A stretch of 64,000 nt of DNA from Candidatus Aminicenantes bacterium (GCA_963702005.1 OY969696.1:736001-800000); one strand, 5' to 3'. Positions 28,820 to 46,771 are shown, counted from the first letter of the stretch. Notes: generated by a model from the sequence alone, not told the origin. Numbers and translations are program-made.

Positions 28820-29386
28820 ATGAGAACCAAGACAGTCCTATCCACCCTGTTCTTTTTCGCGGTTTTCTGCCTTTTGTCCTCGGCCCTCGCCTCGGCCCAG
28901 CTCGAAGTCCCCAAGGTCGTGACCGCGCGGGCCGTCTTGTCCAAGAGCGCAGTCCACGCCGGTGAGACGGTCAAAATCGCCGTCGTCCTCAAGATCGAGA
29001 AGGGCTGGCACATCAACTCGGATGATCCCGGCGACGAGTTCCTGTTCCCCTCGTCCCTCGCCCTTGACGAGGTCGCCGGCTTCGAGGTCAAGGCTTTGGC
29101 CTTCCCCAAGCCCAAGCAGGCCAAGTTCGAGTACTCCGACTTCGAGCTCCGCGTCTACGAAGACGAGGCCGTCGTGGGGGCGCTCCTCCAGGTCGCGGAG
29201 AGCGTTAAAGCCGGCGCCTACAGCCTGACGGGAGTGTTCAAGTACCAGGCCTGCAACAATACGTCGTGCATTATGCCCCAGGACCTCCGCCTCGAGATCC
29301 CGGTCGAGGTCGTGGCGGCGGGCGTCGAGACCAAGGACGTCGAGCCCGACCTCTTCGCCAAGATCGAATTCAAGGACAAAAGCTGA
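28820..29386 (+). CDS. Stand-alone DsbD N-terminal (alpha) domain protein, periplasmic
   Basis: Signal peptide, GWHINS, YQACNNTSCIMP (Cx4C); TTGACA-N17-TAACTT promoter at 28781-28809; first gene of sel operon. Confidence 0.85.
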   Translation: MRTKTVLSTLFFFAVFCLLSSALASAQLEVPKVVTARAVLSKSAVHAGETVKIAVVLKIEKGWHINSDDPGDEFLFPSSLALDEVAGFEVKALAFPKPKQAKFEYSDFELRVYEDEAVVGALLQVAESVKAGAYSLTGVFKYQACNNTSCIMPQDLRLEIPVEVVAAGVETKDVEPDLFAKIEFKDKS

Positions 29387-29400
29387 GGCGCGGGCCGCGA

Positions 29401-29422
29401 TCGGAGGCTCGGTCGGCTCCGA
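29401..29422 (+). promoter_or_regulatory. SECIS-like hairpin in selA leader
   Basis: UCGGAG(G)C(U)C-GGUC-GGCUCCGA with GGUC loop, 14 nt after the upstream UGA stop and next to the selA SD. Confidence 0.5.
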
Positions 29423-29432
29423 ACGGAGACGC

Positions 29433-30842
29433 ATGAAAGAATCTCTTTTTCGGCTGATCCCATCTGTGGACGCCCTCCTCAATCATCCGGAGGCGCGCCG
29501 GCTCGCCGAGGCGTACGGGCGGCCCTTGGCCTTGGACGCCGTCCGCGACGAGCTCGAGGCGGTCCGGGCCGAAATCCAAACGGCCGGCGCCGCATCATCC
29601 TTGGCCGAGAAAGACCTTGCCCCGGAGGCCTTGCTCGACCGAGTCCGGGCGCGGCTCGAGCGGAAGCTCGCCCCCTCGCTGGGACGCACGATCAACGCGA
29701 CCGGGATCGTCATCCATACCGGGCTGGGGCGGGCCGTCCTGGCTCCCGAGGCGCGGGAGGCCCTGGCGCGCGTGTCCCAAGGATACTCGCAGCTCGCCGT
29801 GGATCTTGAGACAGGTCAGCGCGGCCATCGCGACGTCCATTACGCCTCCCTTCTCCGCGAGCTGACCGGCGCCGAGGCCGGTTTCGCCGTCAACAACAAC
29901 GCCGCGGCGACCGTCCTCCTTCTCAACACCCTGGCCAAAGGCAAGGAGGTCATCCTCTCGCGCGGCCAGCTTGTCGAGATCGGGGGTTCGTTCCGGATGC
30001 CCGACGTCATGGAGACGTCGGGGGCCGTCCTGCGCGAGGTCGGGACGACCAACAAGACCCATCTCCGCGACTACGAGGCGGCGATCTCGGACCGGACCGG
30101 CATCCTCCTTCGCGTCCACCACTCGAACTACCGGATCATGGGCTTCGCCGAGGAGCCGGGGATCGAGGAGCTGGTCGAGCTCGGCCGCAAGCACGGCCTC
30201 CCCGTCGTCGACGATATCGGAAGCGGGGCGCTGGTTGACCTCAAAGATTACGACCTCGAGACCGAGCCACTCGTCCAGCGGAGCGTCCGGGCCGGCGCCG
30301 ACGCCGTCTGCTTCTCGGGCGACAAGCTCATCGGCGGGCCCCAGTCGGGGATCATCGTCGGCAGGGCCAAGGTCGTCGGGCGCGTCAAGAAAAACCCGCT
30401 GGCCCGCGCTTTCCGGATCGGGAAGCTGACCGCGGCCGCCCTCGAAGCGACCCTCAAGCTCTTCCTGGACCCGGACCGGCTGAGGGACCGGCATCCCGTC
30501 TACCGGATGCTGGGGCTGGACGCGAAGGAGATCGAACGGCGGGCGCGCGCCGCGTCGGATACGCTGGCGCTCGGCCTGGCCGGGCGGGCCCGCGTTTCGG
30601 TCGTAGAGGACCGGTCCCAGGTCGGAAGCGGCTCGGTCCCGGTTGAGACCCTCCCGACCTTCGTCCTCAAAATCGAATCCGCGTCTCTTCCGGCCGAGGA
30701 GCTGGCCCGCCGGCTGCGGCGCGGCGCCCCGCCCGTCTTCGGCCGCGTCCACAAGGACGCGCTCCTTCTCGACTTTCGGACCGTCTTCCCCGAAGAGGAC
30801 GGCATCGTCATCGACGCCGTCCGGGCGGCCGTCGAACCTTAA
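29433..30842 (+). CDS. selA: L-seryl-tRNA(Sec) selenium transferase
   Basis: [54 protein letters not shown]. Confidence 0.97.
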
Positions 30843-30857
30843 GGGAGAGAACCGGCC

Positions 30858-32063
30858 ATGGTCGACCTCGAAAAGCGCCGCCGGATCATGGGGCGCTCCA
30901 TCAAGCTCGGGCACTGCATCTGCAACCCCAAGGACCCCTGTCCCTGCGACCTGTTCAAGCGGAAGAACGTCTGCCTCTGCGCGGGCGAGCGCGAAGAGGA
31001 GGCGGCCGAGGACGTCGCCCTGACCAAGCTCGTCGAGAACGCGGGCTGCGCCTCCAAGGTCTCCCAGGAATTTCTCAAACAGGCCCTCGAGGGGCTGCCC
31101 GCCGTCTTCGACCCGCGGGTGCTCGTCAGCTCCTCGACTTGCGACGACGCCGGGATCTTCAAGCTCAACAATACGACCGCGCTCGTCCAGACGGTCGACG
31201 TCTTCTCGCCCTGCGTCGACGACCCCTACGTCTTCGGCCAGATCGCCGCGGCCAACTCCGTGAGCGACGTCTATGCCATGGGCGGAAAACCCCTGACGGC
31301 CCTGTCCATTATCGGATTCCCCTCGGACCGGCTCTCGCCCCGGATCATGAACAAGATGCTCCAGGGCGGAATCGACAAGCTCGGCGAGGCCGGGGTCCCC
31401 GTCCTAGGCGGCCACAGCATCAAGGACGCCGAAGTCAAATTTGGGTTCGCCGTCACCGGGGTCGTCCGGCCCGATCGCATCCTGACCAACGACAAGGCCC
31501 GGCCCGGGAACGTCCTTGTCCTGACCAAGCCGATCGGGACGGGGCTGGCCTGCTTCGCCCAACAGCTCGGGAAGGCGGACGCGGCGCTCCTCGAGGCGAC
31601 CGCCCGCTCCATGACCGAGCTCAACGGCCCCGCCGCCGAGGAGGCCGTCAGAGCCGGCGTGCGGGCCGCGACCGACGTGACCGGATTCGGTCTCCTCGGC
31701 CACTTGGCCGAGATGGCTGTCCAGAGCCGGGTCACGGCCGAAATCTGGGCCGAGGAAGTGCCCCTGTTCAAGGGCGTCCTCGACCTCGCCCGCAAGGGGG
31801 TCGTCTCGGGCGCCGTCGAGCGGAACCGGGAATACGCGATGCGCTTCGTGACCAAGGCCCCGGACGTCGGCGAAGAGTGGGAGGCGGTCCTCCTCGATCC
31901 CCAGACCTCGGGCGGTCTTCTTCTTGCCGTTTCCCGGGCGCGCGCGGCCGGGCTCCTCAAGAGGCTCGCGGCGCGGGGGATCGCGTCGGCGCGGATCATC
32001 GGGCGCATCGCAGAGTCGTCCGAGGGAGCGATCCGTGTCCGACTCCGGCCGGAGGGTTCTTAA
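30858..32063 (+). CDS. selD: Selenophosphate synthetase (Cys form) with Cys-rich N-terminal extension
   Basis: [52 protein letters not shown]. Confidence 0.95.
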
Positions 32064-32074
32064 GGGGAGAGGTC

Positions 32075-33998
32075 ATGGCCGGGCTCGACAAAGACCACGT
32101 CATCTTCGGCACGGCCGGCCACATCGACCACGGCAAGAGCTCGCTGGTCAAGGCCCTGACCGGGACCGATCCCGACACGCTTCCTGAAGAAGAAGCTCCG
32201 GGGGATGACGATCGAGCTCGGGTTCGTATTCCTGGACCTCCCCGACTACGAGAAGCAGATCGTCTTCATCGACGTCCCCGGCCACGAGCGGTTCGTCAAG
32301 ACGATGGCGGCCGGGGCCTCGAACATCGACGCCGCCCTCCTGGTCATCGCCGCCGACGAGGGCGTATCGGTCCAAACCCGCGAGCACTTCGACATCCTCC
32401 GTCTCCTCGACGTCCCGCTCGGGATGGTCGTCCTGACCAAGGCCGACCTGGTCGACGCGGACCGGATGGCCGAAGTCCGCGGCGACGTCGTCCGTTTCGT
32501 CGCGGGCTCCTTCCTCGAGGGCGCTCCCCTTCTGGCCGTCTCGTCCGTGACCGGCGCCGGGATCCCCGAGCTCAAAGCGGCCCTGGTTGAGATGGGGCGG
32601 AAAGTGCGGCGGCGGAGCGACACGGGCTTCTTCCGGATGCCGGTCGACCGCGTCTTCACCATCCAGGGCTTCGGCACGGTCGTGGCGGGAACGGTCCTGG
32701 GCGGCGCGGTCGGCGTCGGCGACCGGATCGAGGTTTTTCCCGATCGGCTTCCGGCCCGGGTCCGGGGCGTTCAAGTCCACGGCCGCGGCGCCGAGCGGAG
32801 CGGGATCGGGACACGGACGGCCCTCAACCTGATGGACGTCAAGAAGGAGGATCTGCGGCGGGGACAATGCGTCGCCGCGGCCGGCAGCCTGACGCCGACC
32901 AACCGGCTCGACACGGAGCTTCTCTTGCTGGCCGACGCCGGCAAGGAGCTCAAGCACCGCGAGCGGGTCCGCCTCCACGTCGGGACGGACGAGGTCATCG
33001 CCCGAGTCGTCCTTCTCGACCGGGCCGCGGTCCAGCCGGGCGAGAAGGGCTTTGTCCAGTTCGTCCTAGAGGCGCCGACCGTGGCGCTTCCCGGCGACCG
33101 GTTCGTCATCCGGACCTTCTCGCCGCTGATGACGATCGGAGGAGGCCGGGTCCTCGACCCGACGCCGGGCCGGCACAAACGGTTCGACGATCAGGTCATC
33201 CAGGGGTTGGGCCGGCTCGAAGGGAGCCTCGACGAGGTCGTCGAACAGCTTTTAGTCAAGGCCCGTTTCGCGCCCCAATCTCTGAGCGAGCTGGAGTTGA
33301 GCCTGGGCGGCCGCGCCAAGGAGGTCAAGGAATCCGTCGCCGCGCTCGTCGCGGCGGGGAAGACCGTCGCCGTCCCGTTCGAGAAGGAGGAGCGCTACCT
33401 TCACGCCGGCGCCGCGGCCGAGCTCGCCGGGAGGCTCGTCGGACTCGTCAAGGACTACTTCGAGAAGTTCCCCCACAAGCTGTCGATGCCCCTCGGCGAC
33501 CTCCGCTCCCAGTTCCTGAAGCTGAGCGAGGCGGCCGTCTTCCGGAAACTCCTGGAGGAGCGGGCGGCCCAAGGCGCCTTGGACGCCCAGGGGACCGAGG
33601 TCCGCCTCCCCGAGCGCGGCGTTCGGATGACGGCCCGCGAGCAGGAACTGGCCCGCCGGATCGAGGAGGCCTATCTCAAGGCCGGCTACGACAGTCCGCT
33701 CGATGACGAGCTGTGCCGGACGTTGGGCGCCGAGCCGCCCCTGTTCGAGAAGGTCCTGTTCAGCCTCTACGACCAGAAAAAGCTGATCCGTCTCAACCCC
33801 AAGGTCACCTACCACGTCGATACGGTCGCCAGCATGAAGGCGCTCGTCCAGGAGCACCTCAAACGGAAAGGGGGCATCACGATCGCGGAGCTCCGGGATA
33901 CGATCAAGCTTTCGCGCAAGTACGCGCAGGCCGTCCTCGAGTATTTCGACCGGGTCGGGTTGACCCGGCGCGTCGAGGACCGCCATGTGCTAAAATAG
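32075..33998 (+). CDS. selB: Selenocysteine-specific elongation factor; +1 frameshift near 32186-32194
   Basis: [11 protein letters not shown] in frame from 32075; [20 protein letters not shown] and C-terminal winged helix ([13 protein letters not shown]) in next frame; one extra A in GAAGAAGAAG. Confidence 0.93.
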
Positions 33999-34010
33999 AC
34001 GACGACCCGC

Positions 34011-34106
34011 GGGAGGGTATAGGTTCCGGTGGGCCTTCTGGACTTCAAATCCAGCACGGGGCCGTGAAACGTCCCGGGTGGGTTCAACTCCCACACCTTC
34101 CCGCCA
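34011..34106 (+). tRNA. selC: tRNA-Sec (anticodon UCA)
   Basis: 8-bp acceptor GGGAGGGT/ACCTTCCC, anticodon arm CTGGA-CTTCAAA-TCCAG, long variable arm, T arm GTGGG-TTCAACT-CCCAC, G discriminator and CCA; 96 nt. Confidence 0.97.
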
Positions 34107-34134
34107 CAGCCTCTCTCAGGGGGTAGGGGGGAGC

Positions 34135-34539
34135 TCATCCGGCCAGAAAACGGGCCGGGGACAGGGCCGTGTCGGGGAAGCTCTTGAGGAGGGCCTTGTC
34201 CGTCGTGACCAGGCGGACGTCCAGTCCCCGGGCGAGCGCGACGAACTCGCAGTCGTAGGCGGAGCATTCCGATCCGGCCGCCAGGCTCAACACGTCGAAG
34301 GAATCCACGGCGAACTCGTTGCCCTTCATCAGGGACTCAGCTTCCTTCATAATCCGGGCCGCGTCATCCAGCCCGAAGAATCTCTTTCCGAGGCAGGCGG
34401 CCAGGACGCTCCGGAATTCGCTCCGCCATAGAGGGGGAGCCGCCCAGATCGGATCCTTGCGCAAAACCTTTTCGGCCGCGCCGCTGTGCTCCCCTTTGAT
34501 GAACAGATAGGCGACCAGGTTCGTGTCGACGGCGATCAC
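34135..34539 (-). CDS. vapC: PIN-domain VapC toxin
   Basis: IAVDTN, SEFRS, SAYDCEFV, LVTTDK acidic PIN residues. Confidence 0.9.
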   Translation of the reverse strand: MIAVDTNLVAYLFIKGEHSGAAEKVLRKDPIWAAPPLWRSEFRSVLAACLGKRFFGLDDAARIMKEAESLMKGNEFAVDSFDVLSLAAGSECSAYDCEFVALARGLDVRLVTTDKALLKSFPDTALSPARFLAG

Positions 34540-34781
34540 GGGCGCCCCCGTCGCTTGGCCCGGTCGATAAAGTCTTGGTCCAGGACGCGGCCGGCGGTTT
34601 TATTCCTAAGGACCCGTGCTCTGGCCAGGACATCGTCCGGCTCCAGGCGGCGGGCGGTCAAGGTCTCCTCGAAGATCGAGAGGATTTCGCCGTTGATGCT
34701 CCGGCGGTTCCGACCCGCCCGGGCCCTGATCTTGTCGAACAGCTCCTGGGGGATATTCTTGACGGTGAAGTTCGCTGGCAT
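34536..34781 (-). CDS. Arc/FitA ribbon-helix-helix antitoxin
   Basis: FTVKNIP..RA.RNRRSINGEI; 4-nt overlap with vapC. Confidence 0.85.
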   Translation of the reverse strand: MPANFTVKNIPQELFDKIRARAGRNRRSINGEILSIFEETLTARRLEPDDVLARARVLRNKTAGRVLDQDFIDRAKRRGRP

Positions 34782-34902
34782 CGCTCCGGACCGTTGGTTG
34801 TAATCTGGTTCCATTATGGTTCTTTCAAGACTAAAAGTCAATACGGATCTCCAGCGGTTGTCGATCTCCGGGAGATGTCCTCTTCAGGAATGACGCTTCG
34901 AG

Positions 34903-36264
34903 TCAGGGGGCCGTCTCGCCGCCAAGGTAGCTTCCGACGATCTCCCGCCCCGCCCGCATCAGCTCGTGGATCCAGGAGTAGGCGAAGCGGCCGCCGCGGC
35001 CGGCGAGCCTCAGGTTGCCGAACCGCCCCAAGTAGGAGAGGACGGTCTCGACGTTCTTCGCGCTCTCCCTCTCCAGGATGGGATAGGCATGAGAGAGCCG
35101 GCTGACCTCGGCGTCGATCGGATCGCCGCTTCCGAGCCAGCCGATATTGCGGAGGAGCGACGCCGTGCGCTCGACCAGGGACCCGTCCCCTGAATTCCAA
35201 ATTTCGTCCCCCCGCTGGCAGGGGATCTCGGCGACGAGCGAAGTCCTGCCGGCGGGCGCCATGCGCGCGCTCCGGTTCTTCGGTTCATAGACCCGCGTGA
35301 ACGGGAATTCTTTGTCCGGGAAATAAACGGTCGCCGCCTTCGTCACGGAATCGCAGCCGAGAAACAGGGCGACCAGGACGAGATCCCTGAAGCGCAAGAG
35401 AGAGGCGCTCCGCAGGACTCCGTCGGGCGGCCGGGGCGCCATCATCCGGATGAATTCGGGGAGCGGGAGGGAGCTTATAAACTCGTCGGCTTGGACGGTT
35501 GCGCCGCCCCCGGTTTCGACGGCCATAATCCGTACGCCGTCGTGGATGACCCGCGTCACGGGAGCGTTTGTCCGGATTCGCTCCTTTCCGCAGAATTCGA
35601 CCAGACGCTCGGCGAGGGCGCCGATACCCGGACGCGGATAATAAAAAGAGCCGTCGACGTGCTTGGTGCCCGCCTTCCGGCCCAGGAAGGCCTCGATCAG
35701 GACGGTGCCAAGGGTCAGCCCGTTCATGCGCCGGCCGGAGACCTCGGGAGACAGCTGCCGGCAGGGGACGCCCCAAAGCTTCTCGGAATAATTCAACAGG
35801 AAGCGCTCGCTGATCGTGTCGCCGTACTTGTTCCGGGCGAACGACTCGAAGTCGTCGCTCCGCCGGGCGGCTTTGAGCCGGCCGGACATGACCTGGACCC
35901 CGGATGAAAGGAAGGCCGCGGGACCCAGGCTCCTCATCAAGTTGAGCGGCAGGAAGGGGAAGTCGATCAGGATCCCCCGCCGGTAGATCTTGCTGGGGAC
36001 GTGGATCATTTCCAGCTCTCCGTCAAGCAGGGATCGAATCTCCGCCGTCGCTACGGGGTCCTTGTCGTGAATGCGGTGCGCCCCCGTGTCGTACAGGAAT
36101 TCCGTATGCTTCAGGGTCCGGGCGTTTCCCCCGCAGCGATCGCGGGCTTCGAGGACGATGAAGGGCAGTCCATTCTTCCTGGCGTAAAAGGCCGCCGACA
36201 GTCCGGCGACTCCGCCGCCCAAGATGGCGATCAGCCCCGGCCTTTGTCTCCGTCCGTCCTGCAT
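34903..36264 (-). CDS. FAD-dependent oxidoreductase (protoporphyrinogen oxidase / UDP-galactopyranose mutase-like)
   Basis: ILGGGVAGLSAA, CGG, DTGAH, YSEKLWG, HAYP, GRGGRFAY. Confidence 0.82.
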   Translation of the reverse strand: MQDGRRQRPGLIAILGGGVAGLSAAFYARKNGLPFIVLEARDRCGGNARTLKHTEFLYDTGAHRIHDKDPVATAEIRSLLDGELEMIHVPSKIYRRGILIDFPFLPLNLMRSLGPAAFLSSGVQVMSGRLKAARRSDDFESFARNKYGDTISERFLLNYSEKLWGVPCRQLSPEVSGRRMNGLTLGTVLIEAFLGRKAGTKHVDGSFYYPRPGIGALAERLVEFCGKERIRTNAPVTRVIHDGVRIMAVETGGGATVQADEFISSLPLPEFIRMMAPRPPDGVLRSASLLRFRDLVLVALFLGCDSVTKAATVYFPDKEFPFTRVYEPKNRSARMAPAGRTSLVAEIPCQRGDEIWNSGDGSLVERTASLLRNIGWLGSGDPIDAEVSRLSHAYPILERESAKNVETVLSYLGRFGNLRLAGRGGRFAYSWIHELMRAGREIVGSYLGGETAP

Positions 36265-36367
36265 TGTCGCCCCGCAGCTCCCTTGCTTGGGACGCCTTGC
36301 GCTCGTTCGTTTGACAATAGATGATAGACGGCCCGCGGCGAGTTGTCAAACGCGTCCCGGACTCAGC

Positions 36368-38833
36368 TTATCGTATGGTCACGGTCGCGGGCGGGCCCTC
36401 GCGGCCCGTTTCCGGATCGACCGCGACAAGCCGGTACGTGTAGGCCTTGGTCTTGTCCACGCCGCGCTCCCGATACTCGAATGTCGCCGCGTCGAGCGAA
36501 GCGACGAGGCGCGGCGTCGTCCCCTCGACCAGGTAGAGCCGGTAGGTCAGCCCGGCGTCGTTGGCAGGATTCCGCCGCCAGTTCAGGACGTTGACGTACT
36601 CGACGAAGAGGAGCGAGCGGTTTTCTTTCTTCGTGCCTTTGAAGTCGAGCGGTTCGTAGATGGTCCGCTGGAATTCGGCCCGGACGGCCAGGTCGCGGTC
36701 GACGGTGACGGTCAAGGGATTCGTCGTCCCCGATGCGTCTCCGCTCCAACCCATGAAATGATAGTTCGAGGCCGCCGTCGCCGTGATGGTCACTTGACTT
36801 CCCGGGCTATGTTTATAGGTTCCGGGAGCGGGCGTCGTCGTGCCGCCCGAGGTCGCGCTGATGACGAGGGCGTACTGGCCGCCCGGCCGGATTTGGCAGA
36901 GGCCTCCGCCCGGGGTCGCGGCGACGAGCGTGCCGGTCCCCTTGACGAAGTCGAGGGCGCTGACCGTTTTCACGATCAGGCCCAGGCTGTAATCGGACCA
37001 GGAACTCCCGAAATCCACGCTCTTCCGGACGCCGGCCCAGCCGCCCGCGTAAACCTGGTTGGGGAGGGCCGGATTGACCGCGATGGCCGTCGTCGAGGCG
37101 GTCAGGCAATGGGTCCAGGTCGCGCCGGAGTCCTCGCTGCGGAAGACGCCGTCGTCGGACGCGGCGTAAATACGGAAGGGCGAGACGGGATCGAGGACGA
37201 GGGCGGTGATGGGAGCCGAAAATACGTTGGTCCCCAGCCCCGTCCAGGTTTCGCCTCCGTCCGATGTCCGGCAAACCGAGCCCAGGCTGTTCTGAGTGCC
37301 TCCGACATAGATGATCTGCTCGTTCGTAGGATGCACCGCGATGGCGCAGACCATCCCGGGATCGGGCAGGAGCTTGGACGCCCAATTGGCCCCTCCATCC
37401 GTCGAGATATACAAGGTGACATTGCTGCCCGGCGGACTGCCTCCCGCGTAAAGATGATCGAAGTTCTGGGAATGAACGACCAGAACATCGAGCTGGCCCT
37501 GCTGCAACAGGCTCGTCCAGCTGTTGCCTCCATCTACAGACCTGTAGATGTAGTCTCCGGACCCTCAGCCCTGGCCGGGCGCGATCATATAAACGGTCCG
37601 GGGGTTGCCGGGATCGACGGCCGCGATATAACCCTGATCGTCGCAGCTGTAAAAATAGGGGAGGAGGGACCAGGTCCGGCCGAAGCTGTCGCTCCGATAG
37701 AATCCGCAGTTGGAAACATTGGCATAAAGGACGTTGGGGTAAGAGGCCGGTACATAGAAGGACGGGACCCGGCAGGCCCGAACCCCGGTTTGACTGGCCG
37801 CCCAGGTCGCGCCCGCGTCCGTGCTGCGGTAGACTCCGGCGTCCGAGCCGAAGAAAACCGAGCTTCCCGCCACGGCCATGCGGCGGCAGTCGCCGAGAAG
37901 ACCCGTTTCGGCGGACGTCCAGTCGATGCCGCCGTCCGTGCTCTTGTAGACCCTTTTCTGATAGCCGGCATAGAGGACGGAGGAATTCGCCGGGTCGATG
38001 GCCAGCCCGTAAGCGCAGCTGGTGTTGGCGCTGCTCTGCCAGGTCTGTCCCGAGTCCGAGGAGCGATAGACGCCCCCTTCGGTCGCGGCGAAGACCCGGG
38101 AGGGATTGTTCGGATCCGTTGCCAGGTCGTAGATCTGGGTTGAGAGCCCGCCCGTGATGTCTTGCCAGGAATCGCCGCCGTTCGTCGTCCGGTAGACGAA
38201 GAATTTAGCCGTCGTGGCGGTCCGGTAAATCCCGCTGACATAAATGACGGCCGGATTCCCGAAATTGACGCAGAGGCTGTGGCTCTCGGCGAGATCCGCG
38301 CCGGGCGAGATTCGCTTGGACGTCCAGGTTTGGCCGCCGTCCGTCGTGCGGGCTAATCCGACCGAGGCCGTCTCGGACGTTATCTGGCCGAGGATGAACA
38401 GGCTGTCGGGATCGCTGGGATGGGCGGCCAGCCGTTCGAAGCTGGTGAAGCCGCGCGGATTCGTGAGCTGCGTCCAGGACGAGCCGCCGTTTCGGGATTT
38501 GAAAAGGGAGAGCCAGCTCATGGCATAGAGGCCGCCGCTTCCCGGAGGGCCGAAGGCGAGGTCCGTGATGGGATCATTGAATAACCCGATCCTCTTCCAG
38601 GTTTTGCCTTCGTTCGCGCTCCGGTAGACCTGGGCCGGCGTCGAATCGAAGACGGCCATGAGATCGTTGGCGTTCGCGGGATTCACGGCCAGGTCGCGCA
38701 GGCCGCCGCCGTCGGGACCGATCGATTTCCAAGCGGGGTTGTCCGCCCCGGCCGGCCGCGGCCGGGTTGGAGCGGCGGGAGGGCCGAGGATGAGCGCGGC
38801 TATCAGGATCGAGAATCCAATTCCTTTTTTCAT
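36368..38833 (-). CDS. Putative selenoprotein 5: exported Asp-box beta-propeller with C-terminal InlB B-repeat-like and Fn3-like domains (821 aa, Sec423 at TGA 37565-37567)
   Basis: ...APGQG-U-GSGDYIYRSVDGGNSWTSLL... in frame into ORF 36368..37507; FMGWSGD and YTYRLVAVD tail. Confidence 0.88.
37531..37550 (-). promoter_or_regulatory. SECIS-like hairpin with compensatory pair
   Basis: CAUCUACA-GGUC-UGUAGAUG; G-C to A-U change on both arms; 14 nt after UGA. Confidence 0.9.
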
Positions 38834-39050: not shown

Positions 39051-41033
39051 ATGCAGGCTTGGAAGCGCCGATTCCCGGCGGCCCTCATCAAGATCCTGAT
39101 CCTCGGCGCGCTCGCCTTTCTTTCGGTCAAGCCGGCCGCCGCCCAGAATCCGATCGACTTTACCCTCAAGGACGCGGACGGCAATGACGTCCACCTCCGC
39201 GACTTCCTGGGCAATAAGGTCGTCCTGGTCGATTTCTGGGCGACCTGGTGCGTCCCCTGCGTCAAGGAGCTGTCCCACTTCCAGCGCTTCTACGAGTCCT
39301 ATAAGGACAAGGGTTTGGTCGTCCTGGCCATTTCCGAGGACGGCCCCGAGACCGTGGCCATGGTCAAGCCCTTCCAGCGGCGCTACAAGTACACCTTCAC
39401 CATCCTCCTCGACTCCGAATCCAAGGTCCTGGCCCTCTACAACCCGAGGGTCGTCTTGCCCTACACGCTCCTCATCGGCCGCGACGGCCGGATCGCCAAG
39501 ATCCACCAGGGCTACAGCCTGGGCGACGAGAAAATGCTCGAGCAGGAGATCGTCGAGCTTCTCGAGCCCAAGGCGGAAGTCAAGGCGAGCCGGATGTCGC
39601 TGAGCGCCAGCGAATCCTTCCTGTACCGCCATTTCACCGACAAGGATTATGTCGACGACTCGCGCGAGGGCCGGCCCAACCAAATCCTCAACAAGTTCGA
39701 CCTGACCCTTAACGCGGGCGATCTCCTGGTCGGGATCAGGGCCGACGCGAACCTCGACTTCTCGCCGATGCGGCACGATTACAGCCTGGCCAAGCGGTTC
39801 GTCGAGTTCAACAAATGGAACTTCAGCCTGCGGGCCGGGGATTTCTATTACTCGGTGGGGCGGGGGCTCGCCTTCAGCCTGCTCAAGATCTTCGAGAAGG
39901 AGGGCCTCGAGTACATCATCGACACGACCATCGAGGGCGGGAAGCTCAGCTACGGCGGGAACAAGTTCGAAGCCTGGGGGGGCTGGGTCGAACGCGAGCG
40001 GACGTCGCGGGAGGCGCCGATCGTCCGGGACCTGGTCGGGGGGCTGAGCGTCGGGACCCGCGTCTTGAGCTTCGCCGACGTCAACCTCAACGTCGTCGGG
40101 GCGCGGCTCGAGCCGGGCTCCGCGTTGGGGAGCCGGAACGTCTCCATGGAAACCCTGACCTTCTCGGCGGCCAAGATCGGCAATTTCGCCAAGTTCTACG
40201 GCGAGGGCCTCCTCATCCAGAAGGAAAAATTCTATGTCCCGAACACGATCTACGGCCACGGCGTTTATCTCGAGTCGGGGCTGTTCTTCGGGAACCTGAC
40301 TCTTTTATTCGAGTTCAAGGATTACCAGGACCTCGACTTCGAATACAACCGGCCGCCCCTGCTTGAGAGCGAGCAGCTGGCCGTCGTCGCCAACCAGTTC
40401 GTGACCTCGGCCAAGGACTCGACCGGCGCCGCGATCCGGGCCGATTGGTATTTCCCGGGGGCCTCGACCCTTCTCTTTGCCAAGGGCAGCTGGATCGACG
40501 ACCTGCCCGGCCACTTTCCGCGGACGATCACCCATTTTTTCGGGGGCGTCGAGAAGAAGTTCAAGGAGACGGGCTGGCTGACCCTGATCGGCGGCTACCG
40601 AAACGAGCAGGCGAGCTCCCTGGTTTTTTACTATACGGCGGGCCGGACCTTCCATTGGCAGGGGAATCTCAGCTATCCCCTGACCAGGCGTCTGAGCCTC
40701 GAGCTCGACATCGAGGCCAAGGACTTCGACGGAACGGTCCCCTTCGGAGGGAGGTTTACCGATTATTTCGAACGGCGCTCGTACCTGTCCTTGAGCTACT
40801 CCCCCCGTCTCATCCTGACCGTCCTCTACGACCGGACGGACGACCCCGAGATCCTGGCCGTCAAGAACAAGAAGGATTGGTGGGGGACGCAGCTCGAGAT
40901 CAAACTATCCCACGCCAAGTCGATCCGGATCTTCTACGGGTCCAACAAGGGGGGCGTCAAGTGCGCGGGCGGCGTCTGCAAATTCTTCCCGCCCTTCGAA
41001 GGGTTGAGGATCGACGGCGTCCTTAGGTTCTGA
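39051..41033 (+). CDS. TlpA-like thioredoxin (WCVPC) fused to outer-membrane beta-barrel with C-terminal Cx4C (DUF6029-like)
   Basis: Signal peptide, DFWATWCVPC, alternating beta strands, GGVKCAGGVCKF, terminal Phe. Confidence 0.78.
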   Translation: MQAWKRRFPAALIKILILGALAFLSVKPAAAQNPIDFTLKDADGNDVHLRDFLGNKVVLVDFWATWCVPCVKELSHFQRFYESYKDKGLVVLAISEDGPETVAMVKPFQRRYKYTFTILLDSESKVLALYNPRVVLPYTLLIGRDGRIAKIHQGYSLGDEKMLEQEIVELLEPKAEVKASRMSLSASESFLYRHFTDKDYVDDSREGRPNQILNKFDLTLNAGDLLVGIRADANLDFSPMRHDYSLAKRFVEFNKWNFSLRAGDFYYSVGRGLAFSLLKIFEKEGLEYIIDTTIEGGKLSYGGNKFEAWGGWVERERTSREAPIVRDLVGGLSVGTRVLSFADVNLNVVGARLEPGSALGSRNVSMETLTFSAAKIGNFAKFYGEGLLIQKEKFYVPNTIYGHGVYLESGLFFGNLTLLFEFKDYQDLDFEYNRPPLLESEQLAVVANQFVTSAKDSTGAAIRADWYFPGASTLLFAKGSWIDDLPGHFPRTITHFFGGVEKKFKETGWLTLIGGYRNEQASSLVFYYTAGRTFHWQGNLSYPLTRRLSLELDIEAKDFDGTVPFGGRFTDYFERRSYLSLSYSPRLILTVLYDRTDDPEILAVKNKKDWWGTQLEIKLSHAKSIRIFYGSNKGGVKCAGGVCKFFPPFEGLRIDGVLRF

Positions 41034-41111
41034 AGCCGGGAACGGGCCGGACGTTATCGCCTATCCGTTCCAGGGGGGATTTGAAAAAGTGACAAAGTGT
41101 AGGTTTGACCC

Positions 41112-41867
41112 TCACAAGTATTTTTGGATGATGTTATCGACCTCGGCTTTGATGTAACCCTCCCGCTTGTAGCGGATGGTCCGGTTCCGGTCCATGATGT
41201 GGGGGAGGGGGATCGAATTCCGCCGGAATTGATCATAGATGGCGTGGCTGTTGTCGTCCAGGACCGGGAAGGTCAGTTTATAAGTCTCGGACCAGGTCTT
41301 GGCGCTCCCCTCGATGACGCATAGGATGTACATGAATCCCTTGCCCTTGAGGCTCTGATAGAAGGACTCGGCCGTTTCGGCCTTCTCCCGGCAGGGGCCG
41401 CACCAGTCGGCCGAGAAATCGAGCAGGATGACCTTGCCGTGGTAGGCCGAGAGAGTCACGTCGGCGCCGTTCTGGTCCTTGGCAGTGAAATCGAGGGCGA
41501 TAGACCCTTCCTCGGTCCCGTAGGTCGCGGCCGAGGCCGTGAAGGCCAGGTCGCTCCGCGAAGCCGACCCGACCTCATAGTCGGAGGGGCTGAAGGCGTA
41601 GCCGAGCCGCGAAGGCGTGATGATGTACCCTCCGCCGGGAAGATCGCTGAAGCTGAACCGTCCGTCGCTTCCCGTCGTCGTGGACTTAGAGGCGTCCCAG
41701 GACAAGTAGACGTCGATACCGGGAAGGGCCTGGCCGCCCTGGCTGACGGGGCCGCTGAAGCTCAGCAGGGACCCCTCGGGCCCGGTCGTCGTGGAAGTCT
41801 TGCAGGCCCCCAAGGCCAGGAGCCCGATCGCGAGGGCGAGAATGGCGACCCGGTTCGTCCCGTTCAT
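41112..41867 (-). CDS. Lipoprotein with carboxypeptidase-regulatory-like domain and TlpA/redoxin domain
   Basis: Lipobox LGA|C, TGSDGRFSF, DFSADWCGPC. Confidence 0.82.
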   Translation of the reverse strand: MNGTNRVAILALAIGLLALGACKTSTTTGPEGSLLSFSGPVSQGGQALPGIDVYLSWDASKSTTTGSDGRFSFSDLPGGGYIITPSRLGYAFSPSDYEVGSASRSDLAFTASAATYGTEEGSIALDFTAKDQNGADVTLSAYHGKVILLDFSADWCGPCREKAETAESFYQSLKGKGFMYILCVIEGSAKTWSETYKLTFPVLDDNSHAIYDQFRRNSIPLPHIMDRNRTIRYKREGYIKAEVDNIIQKYL

Positions 41868-41921
41868 GATGACTCTCCTTCGGGGACTTTCGCTCTCCAG
41901 TATAGGTCAAGCTTCCGGCTT

Positions 41922-42000
41922 GTCAACCCCTCAACACACACGAACCGTTCCCGGTTCGTGAGTACTGCAAGGCGGGCTTAACGTCGGCGAACGGGTCAAC
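41922..42000. repeat. Copy of dispersed palindromic element
   Basis: Reverse complement GTTGACCCGTTCGCCGACG..AAGCCCGCCTTGCAGTACTCACGAACCGGGAACGGTTCGTG..GGGGTTGAC, near-identical to parts of 6245-6362. Confidence 0.78.
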
Positions 42001-42009
42001 CGGCCGTCC

Positions 42010-42903
42010 TCAGCCGGCTTTGTCCGGGGCCGGCGCGGAAGCGGCCGGAGCCCTGGCCCCCAGGAATTCGTATTGGATCGAGCCCATGGCGCAGGAGTCC
42101 ACGCATTTGAGGCAGCGGATGCAGTCCGGCGAATTGGGCCGCTTGTAGACCTCGATGTCCAGCGGGCAGGACCGGGCGCACTTGCCGCAGGAGGTGCAGG
42201 TTCCCTCGTCGATCGTCATCCGGAATACGGAGGCCTTGTTGAAAAGCCCGAAGATGGCGCCCAGTGGGCAGGCCGTCCGGCAGAACGGCCTCATGCTGAA
42301 GACCATCCAGATCAGGAACAGTACCAGGACGCCCATCTTCCACTTGAACATGAAGGCGAGCTGGGCCCTGATCCCGGCGTTGAGGGCCGCGAGGGGGATG
42401 CCGGCGATCAAGGTCCCGTCGGGGCAGATCCACTTGCAGAACCAGGTCTGGCCGTAGCCGAACTCGTCGACGAGGAGGAGGGGCAGCGCGAAGACGAACA
42501 GGACCGTGATGATGTAGCGGAGGTAGGTCAGGACGCGGGGGATACGGAGCTTGGGCGATGGAATTTTATGGACGAGCTCTTGGACGAGGCCGAACGGGCA
42601 GAGCCAGCCGCAGGGAATGCGGCCGACCAGGCTCCCCACGGCCCCTAAGATCCCGAGGACGTAGAAACCGAATTGGTGGACGGCGACCGAGAGGTTGAAG
42701 CGGAGGGCCCCCAGGAAGTTCTGAAGGGAGCCGACCGGGCAGGCCCCGATCGCGGACGGGCAGGAGTAGCAGTTGAGGACGGGCAGGCAGATCCCCTTGA
42801 TGCCGCCCTGGAAGATCTCGCCCTTGAGCCAGTTGGGGAGGTAGGCGTTGAAGCCCAGGACGGCGGCGGCTTGGACCCATTTCCGGGTGCGTTGTCTGGC
42901 CAT
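42010..42903 (-). CDS. Membrane 4Fe-4S binding protein (NapH/RdxA-like)
   Basis: CxxxCP motifs (CGWLCPFG, CKWICP, CRTACPLG), TM helices, two CxxCxxCxxxC ferredoxin motifs. Confidence 0.9.
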   Translation of the reverse strand: MARQRTRKWVQAAAVLGFNAYLPNWLKGEIFQGGIKGICLPVLNCYSCPSAIGACPVGSLQNFLGALRFNLSVAVHQFGFYVLGILGAVGSLVGRIPCGWLCPFGLVQELVHKIPSPKLRIPRVLTYLRYIITVLFVFALPLLLVDEFGYGQTWFCKWICPDGTLIAGIPLAALNAGIRAQLAFMFKWKMGVLVLFLIWMVFSMRPFCRTACPLGAIFGLFNKASVFRMTIDEGTCTSCGKCARSCPLDIEVYKRPNSPDCIRCLKCVDSCAMGSIQYEFLGARAPAASAPAPDKAG

Positions 42904-42925
42904 GGTCGCGCTCCTCGGACGGGGC

Positions 42926-43060
42926 TCAGCCGATCCCGATGCAGTCCAGGCAGATCGTCACGGCCTTCTCCAGGACGGTCTGGAATTCGCCGAGCTTGAG
43001 GCCGATCAGGATCAGGACGACCGACGCCGCGAACAGGATCCAGGGCAGCTTCCGTTTCAT
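42926..43060 (-). CDS. Small CXXC membrane protein (CD1871A-like), 44 aa, below ORF-track cutoff
   Basis: MKRKLPWILFAASVVLILIGLKLGEFQTVLEKAVTICLDCIGIG; ATG overlaps upstream stop; sits before 4Fe-4S gene as typical for the family. Confidence 0.85.
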   Translation of the reverse strand: MKRKLPWILFAASVVLILIGLKLGEFQTVLEKAVTICLDCIGIG

Positions 43061-43674
43061 TTACCGCTCCCCTTGACGAGAGCGCCGATGATCTCGTCAA
43101 GCTCCGTGATGTGCTCTTTTTTAAACCCGATATGGGCGTGACTGATGACGCCGGTTGCGTCGATGAGATAGACGACCGGAATTTCCTGGACCTTATAGCG
43201 GCCCGCCATGTCCTTGGTCGTCTGGATGACGTCGGCCGCGGCCGCCCGGTCGGGGGGATCGGCCAGCATCGGGTAGCTGATCTTGAGCTTCCCGTAGAAG
43301 GGCTTGACGACCCTGGACCCCTTCTGGTCGAGGGCGATTCCGAACAGTTGAAGGCCGCCCTCGGCCTGGCCGGGCTTGGGCTGATACTTTTCGTAGAGTT
43401 GCTGCATATAGGGCATGGCCGCCCGGCAGGGGACGCACCAGGTCGCCCAGAAGTCGACCAAAACGCCGGCCGGGTAGGTCTTGGCCTGTTCCGGCTTGCC
43501 GTTGACGACCTTCTCGGTCAGCAGGCAGAGCCGGCCGTTTTCGAGGAAGACGGTATAGGTGACGTCGTCGACGCCCTTGAGGCTGAAGGGAATGAGGCGA
43601 TCGCCTTTGGCCAGGATGCCGAATACGGCCGGGGCCATCGCCAGGACTAGGGCGAGGATGATGAGCCGCTTCAT
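43057..43674 (-). CDS. TlpA family disulfide reductase, exported
   Basis: Signal peptide, DFWATWCVPC, EIP cis-Pro loop. Confidence 0.88.
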   Translation of the reverse strand: MKRLIILALVLAMAPAVFGILAKGDRLIPFSLKGVDDVTYTVFLENGRLCLLTEKVVNGKPEQAKTYPAGVLVDFWATWCVPCRAAMPYMQQLYEKYQPKPGQAEGGLQLFGIALDQKGSRVVKPFYGKLKISYPMLADPPDRAAAADVIQTTKDMAGRYKVQEIPVVYLIDATGVISHAHIGFKKEHITELDEIIGALVKGSGK

Positions 43675-44261
43675 GAAGGCTCCTTGGGGACGGGGGTTTG
43701 GGACCCGATATTGAAACCGATCCCCAAGGCGAGCTGGAAACCTCCGATATCGGCTTTGATGTCCTGTGGCTTGACCTTGCAGCGCGTGTAGCCGGCCTGG
43801 ACGTCGACGAGGACGCCGCCCGGGATCTCGAGAAAGGCCCCGGCCTTCAGGCCGACGCCGAGGCTCCCTTTTTCGACGACCCCGATGACGCTCTTTTCTT
43901 TATACTGGAAATAGCCCAGCCCGGCGCCGACGTAGGGGCGGATAAAGCCGGTCAGCGGGATCTGGTACTTGACGCCGGCCAGGATAGGAATGATCCGGAG
44001 CTTGGCCTCTTCCCCGGTCAGGGTCAGCGCTCCCGTTTTGCTGAAGTAATCGGCGCTCGCCCAGATGGCGAACCGGCCCGCCAGTCCGACCGTGACTTCG
44101 CCCCCCAAGCACAAGCCGCCGCCGTAGATGTCCTTGAAGGCGGTCTCGGTCGGCTGGAAATAGACGGCTTTGGCCTCGATGACGAAGGCGTTCGCCGCGG
44201 GGGCCGCGGCCAGGAACGCCAACCCCAGGCACATAAGCGTCGCCAGCGTTTTAATTTTCAT
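43671..44261 (-). CDS. Small outer-membrane beta-barrel (OmpW/OmpA-like)
   Basis: Signal ANA|F, RPYVGAGLGY, alternating strands, LGIGFN. Confidence 0.8.
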   Translation of the reverse strand: MKIKTLATLMCLGLAFLAAAPAANAFVIEAKAVYFQPTETAFKDIYGGGLCLGGEVTVGLAGRFAIWASADYFSKTGALTLTGEEAKLRIIPILAGVKYQIPLTGFIRPYVGAGLGYFQYKEKSVIGVVEKGSLGVGLKAGAFLEIPGGVLVDVQAGYTRCKVKPQDIKADIGGFQLALGIGFNIGSQTPVPKEPS

Positions 44262-44278
44262 GGTTCCTCTCTCTTCCT

Positions 44279-46771
44279 TCAGCGGACCGTGATCGTAGCT
44301 TCCTGACCTTCGCGGCCCGTCTTATCGACGGCCAGGAGCGCGTAGGTATAGGTCTTGTCCTTTTCGACCCCGCGCTGCCGGAACTCGAGGATGGAAGAAT
44401 CGAGCTCGGCCAGGAAACGGCGCGTCCCCCCTTCGGCGAGGTAGATCCGGTAGGTTCGGATGTCGACGTTGGCGGGGTTGGCCCGCCAGCTCAGGACGTT
44501 GATGTATTCGGCCGAGATGACGCCGCGGTTGATTTTTTTGACGCCGGTCGCGTCGAGGGGCGGATAGATGCTTCGGATGAAACCGGCCGCCAAGGACTTA
44601 TCGGAGTCCATCAGGAGCGTCAGGGGATTAACCGTCCCGGTCGCGCTCCCCGTCCAGCCCGTGAACTCGAAGTTGGGTTCGGGGAGGGCCGTGACCGAGA
44701 CCGAGCTATTCATGTCGTAGGAATGATTCCCCGGCGCGGGATCGGTCGTCCCGCCCGTCGTCGCGCTGAGGCTGAGGACGAAGCGGCTCGACTGACGATA
44801 GCGGAAGACGCCGCCCCCGTTCGTCCCGACGAACAGGGTTTTGGTCGTGGGATTGACGCCCAGGGTGAGAACGTTCCGGACCGGCAGGGTGGCATTGAGG
44901 TCCGTCCAGTCCAGGCCGCGGTTCGCGCTGGCATAGACGCCGTCCGTGCCGGCGATGGTGATGGAAGAGGTCGCGACGGGATCGATATAAATGCAGGTCA
45001 CCGGAGTGTCGGCCAGTTTGGTCCAGGTCGCGCCGCCGTTCTCGCTCCTGAACAAGCCCCCGTTCGTGCCGGCGTAGATCGTCGCCGCAGCAGCCGGATC
45101 GACGGCCAGATCCTGGATCGGGTCGGCGAAAATTCCGGCGGCGAGTTTGGTCCAGCTCGTCCCCCCGTCGAGCGATTTATAGAGGGCGCCGGCCGAGTTG
45201 ACCGTGCCGCCCAGATAGACGGTCCTGTCGTTCGCCGGATCGATCGCGACGGCGAGCGCCGCCGCGGGGGTCGAACCGGCGACCGCGGAATCCGAGACCA
45301 AGTACGTGTCCCAGGTAGTCCCGGCGTCGAGGGTTTTATGCATCGCCATGACCTGAACCCCCGACACGCTCGTGTATCCGGCGATGAACAGGTGGTTGGG
45401 ATTGCGCTCGTTGAGAAGAAGGTCCTTAAAGCTCTTGGTCAACAAATGCTCCCAGCTCTTACCGCCGTCTACAGACCTGTAGACGTCATCCGCCCCTCAG
45501 CCTCCGGCCAGAATGTAGAGCTTGTCCGGATTGGTCGGAGTGACGACGATCCGCAGGACTTTGTCGCAGCGATAGAAGTCCGGCAAGCGCTGCCAGGAAG
45601 TTCCGCTGCTGAGGCTCCGGTAGAAGCCGTTGGCTTGGAACTCGATGTAGATGGTGCCGGCCGCGGAGGGGGCAACCCCCAAGGCCGGGATGAGGGACGC
45701 CTGGATGCCGGAATGGGAGGCTTCCCAGGTTTGCCCCCCGTCCGTGCTCTTATAAACGCCGCCCGTGGAGCCGAAGTAAATCGCCGAAGCCGTGATAACG
45801 ATGGCCCGGCCGGCTCCGTAAAGGCCGACGCCGAACTCCGTCCAGTTGACGCCGCCGTCCACGCTTTTATAGCACTTCTTATCGTACCCGGCGTAGAGGA
45901 CGTCCGGGTTGGCCGGGTCGACGGCCAGCGTGTAGCCGAAGGCGAAGCCCTCGTTCCTCTGCCAGGACCGTCCGCCGTCCGTGCTGCGGTAGATTCCCCA
46001 GCTCGTCGCCGCCCAGACCTTGTCCGGGTTCGTCGGGTGGACGGCCAGGGAGGTGACCAGGTCCGTGATCTCCGTCCCGATGATCGACCAGGACGTCCCT
46101 CCGTTCACCGACTTGTACATCCGATAGATGGCGGCGACCCCGGTCGTGAGCGAGCCGGCCAGGTAGAGGGTCGACGGGCTCGAGGGGGCGACGGCCAAAG
46201 CCGTCGCCGAGCCTGTGTCCGAGCTCGGGCTGAGCTTGACGGTCGTCCAGGTCCGGCCGCCGTCCGCGGTCTTGAAGAAAGCCATGCAGTTCTTCCCCGC
46301 TAAGGCGCCGTAGGCCCCCGTGGCGTAGACGATATTCGAGTTCGAGGGGTGGATGGCCAGCTTGCCGCCGACGGAGAAGCGGTTGGCGCCGAAGGCAAAT
46401 TCGGACCAGGACACGCCCTTGTCCTCCGATTTGAGGATGCCGGTATCGGTCAGGATGTAAGCGATGTTGGCGTCGCGATTGACGGCCAGGTCCAGGGCCG
46501 TACGCTCGAACGTCGCCCGGCGTGCCCAGCTCCGGCCTCCGCTTGTCGTCCAAAAGACCTGGCTGAACCCGGTGAGCCCGGAGAGGGCCAGAAGCTCGCT
46601 TTGTTTTGAGGGGTTCAGCGCGAGCGTCGTGATGCTCCCCCCTTCCGGTCCCAGCGCTTCCCAAGCGGCGGCCGCCGGCCGGAATCTCGGGGTGGATACC
46701 CTCTCCCCCGCGCCGAACGCGAGGCTGAAGAATACCGAGAGACCGATTCCGATGGCGCCGATCTTTCTCAT
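44279..46771 (-). CDS. Putative selenoprotein 6: exported Asp-box beta-propeller with InlB B-repeat-like and Fn3-like tail (830 aa, Sec425 at TGA 45497-45499)
   Basis: ...ILAGG-U-GADDVYRSVDGGKSWEHLLTK... in frame into ORF 44279..45445; first gene of apparent operon with redox genes. Confidence 0.88.
45466..45485 (-). promoter_or_regulatory. Bacterial SECIS-like hairpin
   Basis: CGUCUACA-GGUC-UGUAGACG, 11 nt after UGA. Confidence 0.88.

Follow-up and report, generated by a model that had tools for sequence, protein, structure and literature searches.

A Candidate Selenium Island in an Aminicenantes Genome: Selenocysteine Genes Grouped with the Parts of a Proposed DsbD-Like Thiol Relay

A stretch of 64,000 nucleotides from a Candidatus Aminicenantes bacterium (GCA_963702005.1, OY969696.1:736001-800000), hereafter the window, carries the genes for selenocysteine (Sec) synthesis and insertion in the company of genes for exported thiol-redox proteins and for exported beta-propellers with in-frame TGA codons. 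The source is an uncultured wetland bacterium whose genome is a single contig of 4.31 Mb, in which the window is G000:C1:736001-800000. Genes in the window were taken from a listing of open reading frames (ORFs) with TGA read through together with Pfam and NCBIfam profile scans, comparative counts come from a 301-genome sample of the class Aminicenantia, and gene sets were compared by tblastn of window proteins against regions taken from other genomes. All genes named in an initial annotation of this DNA were found at or near where it had placed them. Because related species keep the Sec-synthesis genes and a probable envelope reducing relay grouped, the two systems probably work together.

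The sel operon begins with DsbD_N (28820-29386, plus strand), which codes for a stand-alone exported protein resembling the alpha domain of DsbD. The product matches PF11412 above the gathering score (40.2 bits against a cut-off of 25, E 3.9e-10), bears an N-terminal hydrophobic signal and a CNNTSC motif of the Cx4C type, and belongs to a group in which QAC-x4-C-xxP is invariant in 12/12 aligned orthologues. It is a 188-aa ORF rather than a fused alpha-beta-gamma DsbD, full-length forms of which (610-830 aa) occur in other families, and the 4.31-Mb genome gives no second DsbD_N match. On the same strand follow selA (29433-30842), the Cys form of selD (30858-32063) and selB (32075-33998), all three recognized by profile match, and then tRNA-Sec with the anticodon TCA (34011-34106), with which the Sec machinery at the locus is complete. 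No terminator-like site was seen between DsbD_N and selA, which is weak evidence for an operon. The first ~40 codons of selB, which encode the P-loop of the G-domain, lie in another frame: next to GGGGG, near 32185-32205, one nucleotide seems to have been inserted, and either the assembly is at fault or the gene itself is broken. The initial annotation had described a sel operon headed by a stand-alone periplasmic DsbD-alpha with a Cx4C motif and divergent from four propeller genes, and the PF11412 match, the CNNTSC motif and the minus-strand position of those genes (P1-P4, below) bear this out. As an aside on SelD, an N-terminal Cys-rich extension of ~50 aa (window 30858-31010) with the pattern CxC...CxC...CxC precedes the TIGR00476 match; relatives retain the extension, as judged by tblastn from residue 1, and in one of them (G006) SelD also has a C-terminal CMD/AhpD-like domain. 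The segment between tRNA-Sec and the propeller gene P5 (34135-36264) is occupied by a VapC/VapB pair and a gene of the FAD amine-oxidase family, neither of which was seen in related loci.

A second group of genes forms a packed run on the minus strand, headed by the propeller gene P6 (44279-46771). After a 17-nt gap comes a gene for a small outer-membrane (OM) beta-barrel of the OMP_b-brl or OmpW-like kind (43671-44261), which overlaps by 4 nt the gene for TlpA3 (43057-43674), an exported thioredoxin-like protein with a WCVPC motif. A further 4-nt overlap leads to the gene for a 44-aa membrane peptide of the CD1871A family (42926-43060), and a 22-nt gap to that for a Fer4_5 membrane protein (42010-42903) with motifs for two [4Fe-4S] clusters, three CX3CP motifs and an N-terminal loop of four Cys. 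No promoter-like sites were seen inside the run from P6 to Fer4_5 (weak evidence), and the spacing agrees with the earlier account of a tightly packed run of barrel, TlpA, CXXC peptide and 4Fe-4S protein under P6. The peptide, which ends in CLDCIGIG, scores 53.8 bits against NF040920 (cut-off 32) and has one transmembrane helix and a C-terminal CXXC; C37, C40, G42 and G44 are invariant in 17/17 sequences, and the ending C-x2-C-IGIG is kept. Open frames of ~255 aa in genus g4 that had suggested a fusion of TlpA and CD1871A turned out to be separate overlapping genes in different frames, and the fusion was rejected.

The Fer4_5 gene adjoins the CD1871A gene in 23/23 Aminicenantia loci, in a locus from Clostridia and in 29/29 short loci. 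Eighteen Cys are invariant among the Fer4_5 proteins: eight belong to the cluster motifs, six make up three CX3CP pairs and four lie in an N-terminal loop, C-x5-C-x2-C-x6-CP. By hydropathy and charge, the outer side of the membrane is the predicted location of this loop, of the second CX3CP pair and of the peptide's CXXC. Prediction of a complex between the two proteins, with a 17-row alignment for each, returned a median score of 0.31 against a mark of 0.32, a value that speaks neither for nor against a pairing. The Clostridia locus, in a metagenome-assembled genome (L011 9826-11518), consists of a CD1871A gene followed by one for a 536-aa fusion, in which a Fer4_5 membrane part, a 2x[4Fe-4S] domain, the sequence KRKRHRR, one transmembrane helix and a TlpA domain with CTPC succeed one another; in this order the clusters would face the cytoplasm and the thioredoxin would lie beyond the membrane. 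The genome's only match to PF02683 (DsbD_TM/CcdA) is ~520 kb from the locus.

Assignment of the Fer4_5 protein within its family is less specific than had been proposed. Its domain score is 67.8 against a cut-off of 22, which supports the earlier view of a membrane Fe-S protein, but the match to NapH/MauN TIGR02163 (64.2 against 213) is too weak to keep the NapH/RdxA-type label; the match to NosR reaches 41 bits with a cut-off of 1000 and that to CcoG 18.8 bits with a cut-off of 316.7. The CcoG match, weak as it is, would suit a role in copper handling, in which TlpA-type and CcoG-like Fe-S proteins reduce Cu(II) or metallochaperones on behalf of metalloenzymes in the envelope and Sec acts as a metal ligand, and the title of PDB entry 4txo has TlpA reducing the copper chaperone ScoI. 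We regard such a role as very improbable, since the CcoG score is far under the cut-off and no Sco, PCuAC, cupredoxin or oxidase genes were found in the neighborhoods scanned.

Two further TlpA-type proteins are encoded by a convergent pair of genes. One, divergent from P5 (38988-41033, plus strand), codes for TlpA with WCVPC fused to a DUF6029 outer-membrane barrel that has CAGGVC at its C-terminus. The other (41112-41867, minus strand) codes for a lipoprotein with the lipobox LGAC in which CarboxypepD_reg is combined with TlpA (CGPC). A TlpA lipoprotein followed by a TlpA-OM-barrel fusion divergent from P5 is what the initial annotation had reported here. The three TlpA-type proteins match PF00578/PF08534, their motifs are WCVPC, WCVPC and WCGPC, and each has an N-terminal hydrophobic segment or a lipobox. 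In a model of the barrel fusion with a predicted local distance difference test (pLDDT) score of 72.6, the N-domain superposes on ResA at a template modeling (TM) score of 0.88-0.92 and ~24-26 long beta strands give a weak match to large OM barrels (TM 0.34-0.41). The convergent pair is kept in 13/14 loci examined. The lipoprotein and the barrel fusion are candidate clients or onward carriers of a relay. The barrel protein also ends in an invariant C-x4-C before the C-terminal Phe, both in the window and in L090-L096.

The six propellers of the window, candidate clients of a relay, are all encoded on the minus strand. P1-P4 are tandem genes for signal-peptide-bearing double propellers of the BNR/Sortilin type, each with one in-frame TGA at the same alignment position: P1 (20150-22184, TGA 20864-20866), P2 (22324-24345, 673 aa, Sec435 from TGA 23041-23043), P3, a paralog of P2 (24442-26463, TGA 25159-25161), and P4 (26643-28679, 678 aa, Sec441 from TGA 27357-27359). 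P5 (36368-38833, 821 aa, Sec423 from TGA 37565-37567) and P6 (830 aa, Sec425 from TGA 45497-45499) are propellers with a C-terminal extension. P1 has an apparent 1-nt frameshift near 21280-21300, and yet the motif GU...VYRSVDGG is kept. In the whole genome there are 14 TGA paralogs with the TGA at one alignment position, of which 13 match GU...VYRSVDGG and the fourteenth is at 872130. Those outside the window lie at C1:872130, 1221142, 2077042, 3455348, 3596379, 3598432, 3973786 and 4136115, and ~6 further propeller paralogs have no TGA, one of them (2125115) with Cys at the site.

These TGA codons most likely encode Sec, because their position is conserved, a hairpin follows them, homologues read through the site, other homologues have GC there and the Sec machinery is adjacent. 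The same TGA position is found in 6 proteins of other genomes. All 5/5 intact window paralogs that were aligned have, 14 nt past the TGA, the start of an 8-bp hairpin (at 23007-23026 in P2, 25125-25144 in P3, 27326-27345 in P4, 37531-37550 in P5 and 45466-45485 in P6), with one compensatory pair and with nucleotides conserved even at third codon positions. Propeller homologues without TGA are continuous through the Sec site, and 5/60 of the best database homologues have GC in place of GU. Gene callers cut these genes at the TGA, so that P2, for example, is stored as a 434-aa protein. A crude genome-wide scan for in-frame TGA gave nothing convincing beyond the propellers, with a filter that recovered only 6/14 of the TGA propellers themselves.

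Structure prediction relates the propellers to a known fold. An AlphaFold2 model of P6 built with 26 family members (pLDDT 89.8, predicted TM score 0.78) resembles GH74 xyloglucanases, which have two seven-bladed BNR propellers (PDB 5fkq, 1sqj, 2cn3). The top Foldseek matches have E-values of 1e-25 to 1e-26, and the best-superposing GH74 structures, such as 5fkq, align at TM 0.55-0.62, as expected of a double seven-bladed fold. The profile match to GH74 is 4e-41 with an identity of just 15-18%, and the profile alignments to GH74 chains fall in shifted repeat registers and do not place the catalytic Asp pair. The propellers differ from GH74 further in an inserted loop with Sec or Cys and in having redox rather than glycan-use gene neighbors. 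In P6, Sec425 sits in the loop joining strands 418-423 and 428-433, just ahead of an Asp-box, and this loop is gapped in 36/60 database homologues, the more distant ones. A Cys ~24 residues upstream of Sec (alignment column 566) is present in 15/19 Sec forms versus 0/8 non-Sec forms; the two residues would sit on adjacent loops on the same side of a blade, where a selenenylsulfide could arise between them. Two side observations concern the surroundings of the fold. The C-terminal ~170 aa of P5 and P6 (window 36368-36900 and 44279-44800) consist of an InlB B-repeat and a beta-sandwich that recur at 42-50% identity at the end of otherwise different proteins in many related genomes, and may be a sorting or anchoring module. 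A DUF7948/SBBP beta-propeller gene (window 47411-49498) adjoins P6, and a homologue of it (39% identity; L007 6493-8505) adjoins another TGA propeller in a genome of the same genus.

The clustering of these genes exceeds chance within the genome. DsbD_N, CD1871A and three AhpC/TSA-fold genes all lie ≤15 kb from the only selA match, the sole CD1871A gene being 13.5 kb away from it, and 3/9 of the genome's AhpC/TSA-fold matches fall within 4.4 kb at the locus. A genome of the same genus (G001) is fully syntenic with the window, and beyond its own family the complete set turns up in altered order in four genera belonging to three families. A genome of family f3 (G040) has a P6-like gene with TGA followed by OMP, TlpA3, CD1871A, Fer4_5 and the TlpA lipoprotein, with the TlpA-barrel and DsbD_N on the opposite strand. 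Within ~27 kb a genome of family f6, genus g45 (G245) holds a propeller with TGA, OMP, tRNA-Sec, selB, selD, selA and DsbD_N, and after these the rest of the set (TlpA-barrel, TlpA lipoprotein, Fer4_5, CD1871A and TlpA3). The genome from family f4, genus g32 (G128) groups a propeller with TGA, OMP, TlpA lipoprotein, TlpA-barrel and DsbD_N-selA-selB-tRNASec within 10 kb and has the core cassette on another contig, and in family f6, genus g38 (G159) the TlpA-barrel, TlpA lipoprotein and a propeller with TGA are adjacent. TlpA3-CD1871A-Fer4_5-DsbD_N-selA-selD-selB-tRNASec run along one strand in G188 (g45), and the sel operon and the cassette are convergent and ~0.6 kb apart in G006 (family f5). 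A single operon with the gamma-like TlpA3, the membrane module and the alpha-like protein is present in both G188 and G194. Gene order thus varies between families while the set is retained, which argues for selection for co-location rather than inertia. The linkage proposed in the initial annotation is, by gene neighborhood and by co-occurrence, conserved in the class sample: the set recurs in other families, and DsbD_N precedes selA in 40 genomes.

Those 40 genomes, among 93 that are selA-positive, have a stand-alone DsbD_N directly upstream of selA on the same strand. They were found by comparing by hand two tables of matches, one for selA and one for DsbD_N, with orthologous stand-alone DsbD_N defined by E <1e-30, and 6 of the operons were confirmed by tblastn. 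The gap is 24-166 nt in 39/40, and G013, whose selA match is truncated, gives no clean gap. Eight genera are represented (g1, g2, g4, g10, g32, g35, g5 and g45). CD1871A occurs in 37/40 of these genomes versus 6/53 of the other selA-positive ones, and the DsbD_N matches in selA families without the cassette sit in 610-830-aa ORFs, that is, in full-length DsbD. DsbD_N is also ≤5 kb from CD1871A in 12 genomes, including the selA-negative G196, G235 and G292. DsbD_N therefore belongs with the cassette and, in Sec users, has come to head the sel operon.

The form of the cassette follows the presence of selA as well. In a tally of 50 genomes, window included, TlpA3 directly precedes CD1871A in 29/50 and selA is found in 25/29 of these, versus 0/21 for the 21/50 with other cassette forms, which lack TlpA3. 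At the level of genera, 12 have the TlpA3 form, and selA was found in 11 of these; 6 have other forms, with selA in no carrier genome. In the selA-negative genus g19, a two-domain rhodanese is directly upstream of CD1871A-Fer4_5 in 12/14 loci (e.g., L044 10127-11032), and the forms without TlpA3 in other genera have DUF481 or a small OM barrel nearby.

These same patterns can be read as reductive selenium acquisition, in which the relay would reduce or carry periplasmic selenium (selenite, elemental Se or selenotrisulfides). Selenium would enter via the small OM barrel, be held on the dithiols of TlpA3 and DsbD-alpha and reach cytoplasmic SelD as selenide, and the propellers would be co-regulated users. 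The co-operonic placement of DsbD_N with selA-selD-selB, mostly in genomes without the propeller family, and the association of the TlpA3 form with selA both suit this scheme, and thiol-mediated selenite reduction and thioredoxin-bound selenide are given as established chemistry in the portions covered of a 2022 review (PMC9312934). Rhodanese is a chalcogen carrier, and both cassette forms include an OM barrel gene in the core operon; since these features fit chalcogen trafficking, acquisition is a serious rival. We hold it to be somewhat unlikely, and several points stand against it. The locus has no conserved inner-membrane transporter, the cassette operon starts with P6 in three genomes, the TlpA lipoprotein/TlpA-barrel pair resembles oxidoreductases that act on proteins, the TlpA3 form persists in G014 and G020, where selA was not matched, and the literature covered provided no precedent.

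The module can also be found without Sec, and Sec without the module. CD1871A is present in 89/301 genomes and selA in 93/301, and neither requires the other: genus g19 has CD1871A in 22/23 genomes and selA in 0/23, g15 has them in 6/8 and 0/8, and g3 in 0/8 and 8/8. Together with the Clostridia genome and with the 8 loci in which the lipoprotein/TlpA-barrel pair stands alone, these counts would suit a generic envelope reductant, with Fer4_5, CD1871A and TlpA substituting for CcdA/DsbD in the service of ordinary thiol enzymes and the proximity to sel genes arising from shared ancestry, island transfer or shared anaerobic regulation. We find this improbable given that the gene set is kept despite changes of order between families, that DsbD_N is promoter-proximal in the sel operon of 8 genera and that the TlpA3 form is so unevenly distributed with respect to selA. 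The counts do dispose of one element of the initial annotation, which had considered a dedicated system: each module also occurs alone, as CD1871A/Fer4_5 does in g19 and the lipoprotein/barrel pair in its 8 loci.

On this evidence a functional connection of some kind between relay and Sec use seems likely to us, and the foremost candidates for what the relay serves are exported selenoproteins and the reductive acquisition of selenium. More tentatively, the locus may be a conserved selenium island in which a Sec-insertion operon is joined to a DsbD-like thiol relay in separate parts. In the chain that we envisage, a cytoplasmic reductant would supply electrons to the pair of [4Fe-4S] clusters in the Fer4_5 membrane protein; from there they would reach the Cys within the membrane and on the outer face of this protein and also the CXXC of the CD1871A peptide, the two proteins standing in for the beta domain of DsbD. 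The exported, gamma-like TlpA3 would be the next carrier, followed by the stand-alone DsbD-alpha as a hub and then by the clients, with delivery to the propellers possibly via the TlpA lipoprotein and the TlpA-outer-membrane-barrel fusion. Since its gene comes first in the selA-selD-selB operon, the putative hub would be expressed along with the Sec machinery. The order from Fe-S protein to peptide to TlpA to DsbD-alpha is plausible, and the natural Clostridia fusion supports it, since it ties a ferredoxin domain on the cytoplasmic side through one helix to an external TlpA. Servicing of exported selenoproteins is a role we can propose for this relay only with reserve. Its specific form, in which the relay keeps the single exposed Sec and its frequent partner Cys of the GH74-like propellers reduced, or resolves Se-S bonds, calls for slightly more reserve still.

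Comparison with characterized systems shows which parts of this chain have counterparts. As in systems of DsbD or CcdA with TlpA/ResA/CcmG clients, the locus has an alpha domain of Ig-like type that is exported and carries two Cys in its active site, and it has exported thioredoxin-fold partners with CXXC. Unlike DsbD, its alpha part is a separate 188-aa protein that heads a sel operon and has Cx4C, one residue shorter than the motif of Escherichia coli DsbD, which we take to be Cx5C. The membrane step also differs, with a Fer4_5 Fe-S protein and a 44-aa CXXC peptide in place of DsbD_TM/CcdA. NapH and NosR-NosH share with the Fer4_5 protein the PF12801 domains, the CX3CP motifs and the C-terminal 2x[4Fe-4S] domain, as well as the placement of an Fe-S gene beside that for an exported beta-propeller; NosR supports the periplasmic propeller enzyme NosZ. 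In contrast to both, the locus protein has four invariant Cys in an N-terminal loop and an obligate partner in the CXXC micropeptide, and its output is seemingly thiol-disulfide exchange rather than quinol or heme transfer. Fe-S clusters reduce disulfides in ferredoxin:thioredoxin reductase and heterodisulfide reductase, where clusters likewise stand by conserved Cys pairs upstream of a thioredoxin-fold protein. The protein at our locus is, however, membrane-spanning, and its likeness to these enzymes is a likeness of features. For the client end, the closest parallel is the DsbD-powered rescue of single periplasmic Cys from sulfenylation by DsbG/DsbC, and the two have in common exported proteins with one reactive chalcogen residue and an encoded hub of the DsbD-alpha type. 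In our case the residue is Sec, and no DsbC/DsbG homologue was identified.

Several observations weigh against the relay serving the propellers, or against the strength of its link to Sec. The propeller family was not found by the window queries, with 3 candidates scored per genome, in genera g4 (0/31), g10 (0/6), g5 (0/4) and g35 (0/1), nor in a search of family f4 (0/11), and in these four genera the linkage of relay and sel genes persists; most genomes with the DsbD_N-sel operon thus lack the window's propeller family by the queries used. Conversely, propeller matches in G016 carry in-frame TGA, and in some cases other stops as well, but that genome has no CD1871A gene and no TlpA-barrel, and no TlpA was found within the 34 kb covered. 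The G003 propeller that adjoins TlpA3-CD1871A-Fer4_5 has Pro in place of Sec and lacks the partner Cys. In the window's own genome 8/14 TGA paralogs lie outside the window, and the nearest TlpA-like gene among the pairs checked is ~46 kb away. To these may be added the lipoprotein/TlpA-barrel pairs with no propeller nearby, the apparent frameshift of selB in the assembly and the four genomes with the TlpA3 form and no selA match (G014, 94% complete; G020, 92%; G194, 82%; G302, 67%). The genomes counted are related and hence not independent, and most of the 40 with DsbD_N-selA belong to family f4. The initial proposal of an envelope relay acting on exported Sec therefore fares unevenly: the linkage is conserved and the chain plausible, but the propellers as client are called into question by the linkage without them, by G016 and by the Pro of G003.

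Searches for other Sec-containing clients were negative within their scope. A scan for in-frame TGA around the cassettes of other genomes returned only same-frame gene junctions. Known selenoprotein families were searched for in G000 (the genome of the window), G045, G019, G149 and G006. The Fdh-alpha matches in these five genomes have no TGA, no member of the FCYXU TonB receptor family rose above the cut-off (one weak G019 match has a TGA), and the AhpC/TSA matches in four relatives have no TGA.

A more ambitious version of the servicing role, to which we assign little likelihood, is an envelope-spanning conduit for thiol and selenol chemistry running from the Fe-S clusters to the OM barrel and reducing secreted or surface GH74-like selenoenzymes. 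Its steps would be the CXXC micropeptide, the inner-membrane-anchored TlpA, soluble DsbD-alpha as shuttle, the OM TlpA lipoprotein and the TlpA-barrel. If true, such a conduit would do without heme what MtrCAB-type systems do in extracellular electron transfer, and its synthesis would accompany that of the Sec machinery.

In the literature covered, we found no paper on CD1871A and none that joins Aminicenantes with selenoproteins, and the records covered for the combination of NapH, TlpA, thiol-disulfide exchange and 4Fe-4S held nothing relevant. By term, the main texts of Lin et al. 2015 (PMC5322559), of the 2022 review cited above and of a 2026 review of the prokaryotic selenoproteome (PMC13188914) have no periplasmic thiol relay, and the main text of the last contains no propeller, BNR, sortilin, Ycf48, sialidase or glycos- wording. 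A selenium link for such a relay was thus not found in the literature covered. The points that the window adds are the selenium linkage itself, a split DsbD-alpha that heads a sel operon, two TlpA fusions and an exported selenoprotein family.

To our knowledge, bacterial selenoproteins are usually regarded as cytoplasmic redox enzymes. The window flags a large exported family, with 14 TGA paralogs in one genome that gene callers cut at the TGA. If the link between the relay and Sec is functional, it would show how Sec stays usable in an oxidizing envelope, or how anaerobes mobilize selenium, and would provide a physiological client for a widespread, uncharacterized alternative to DsbD/CcdA.

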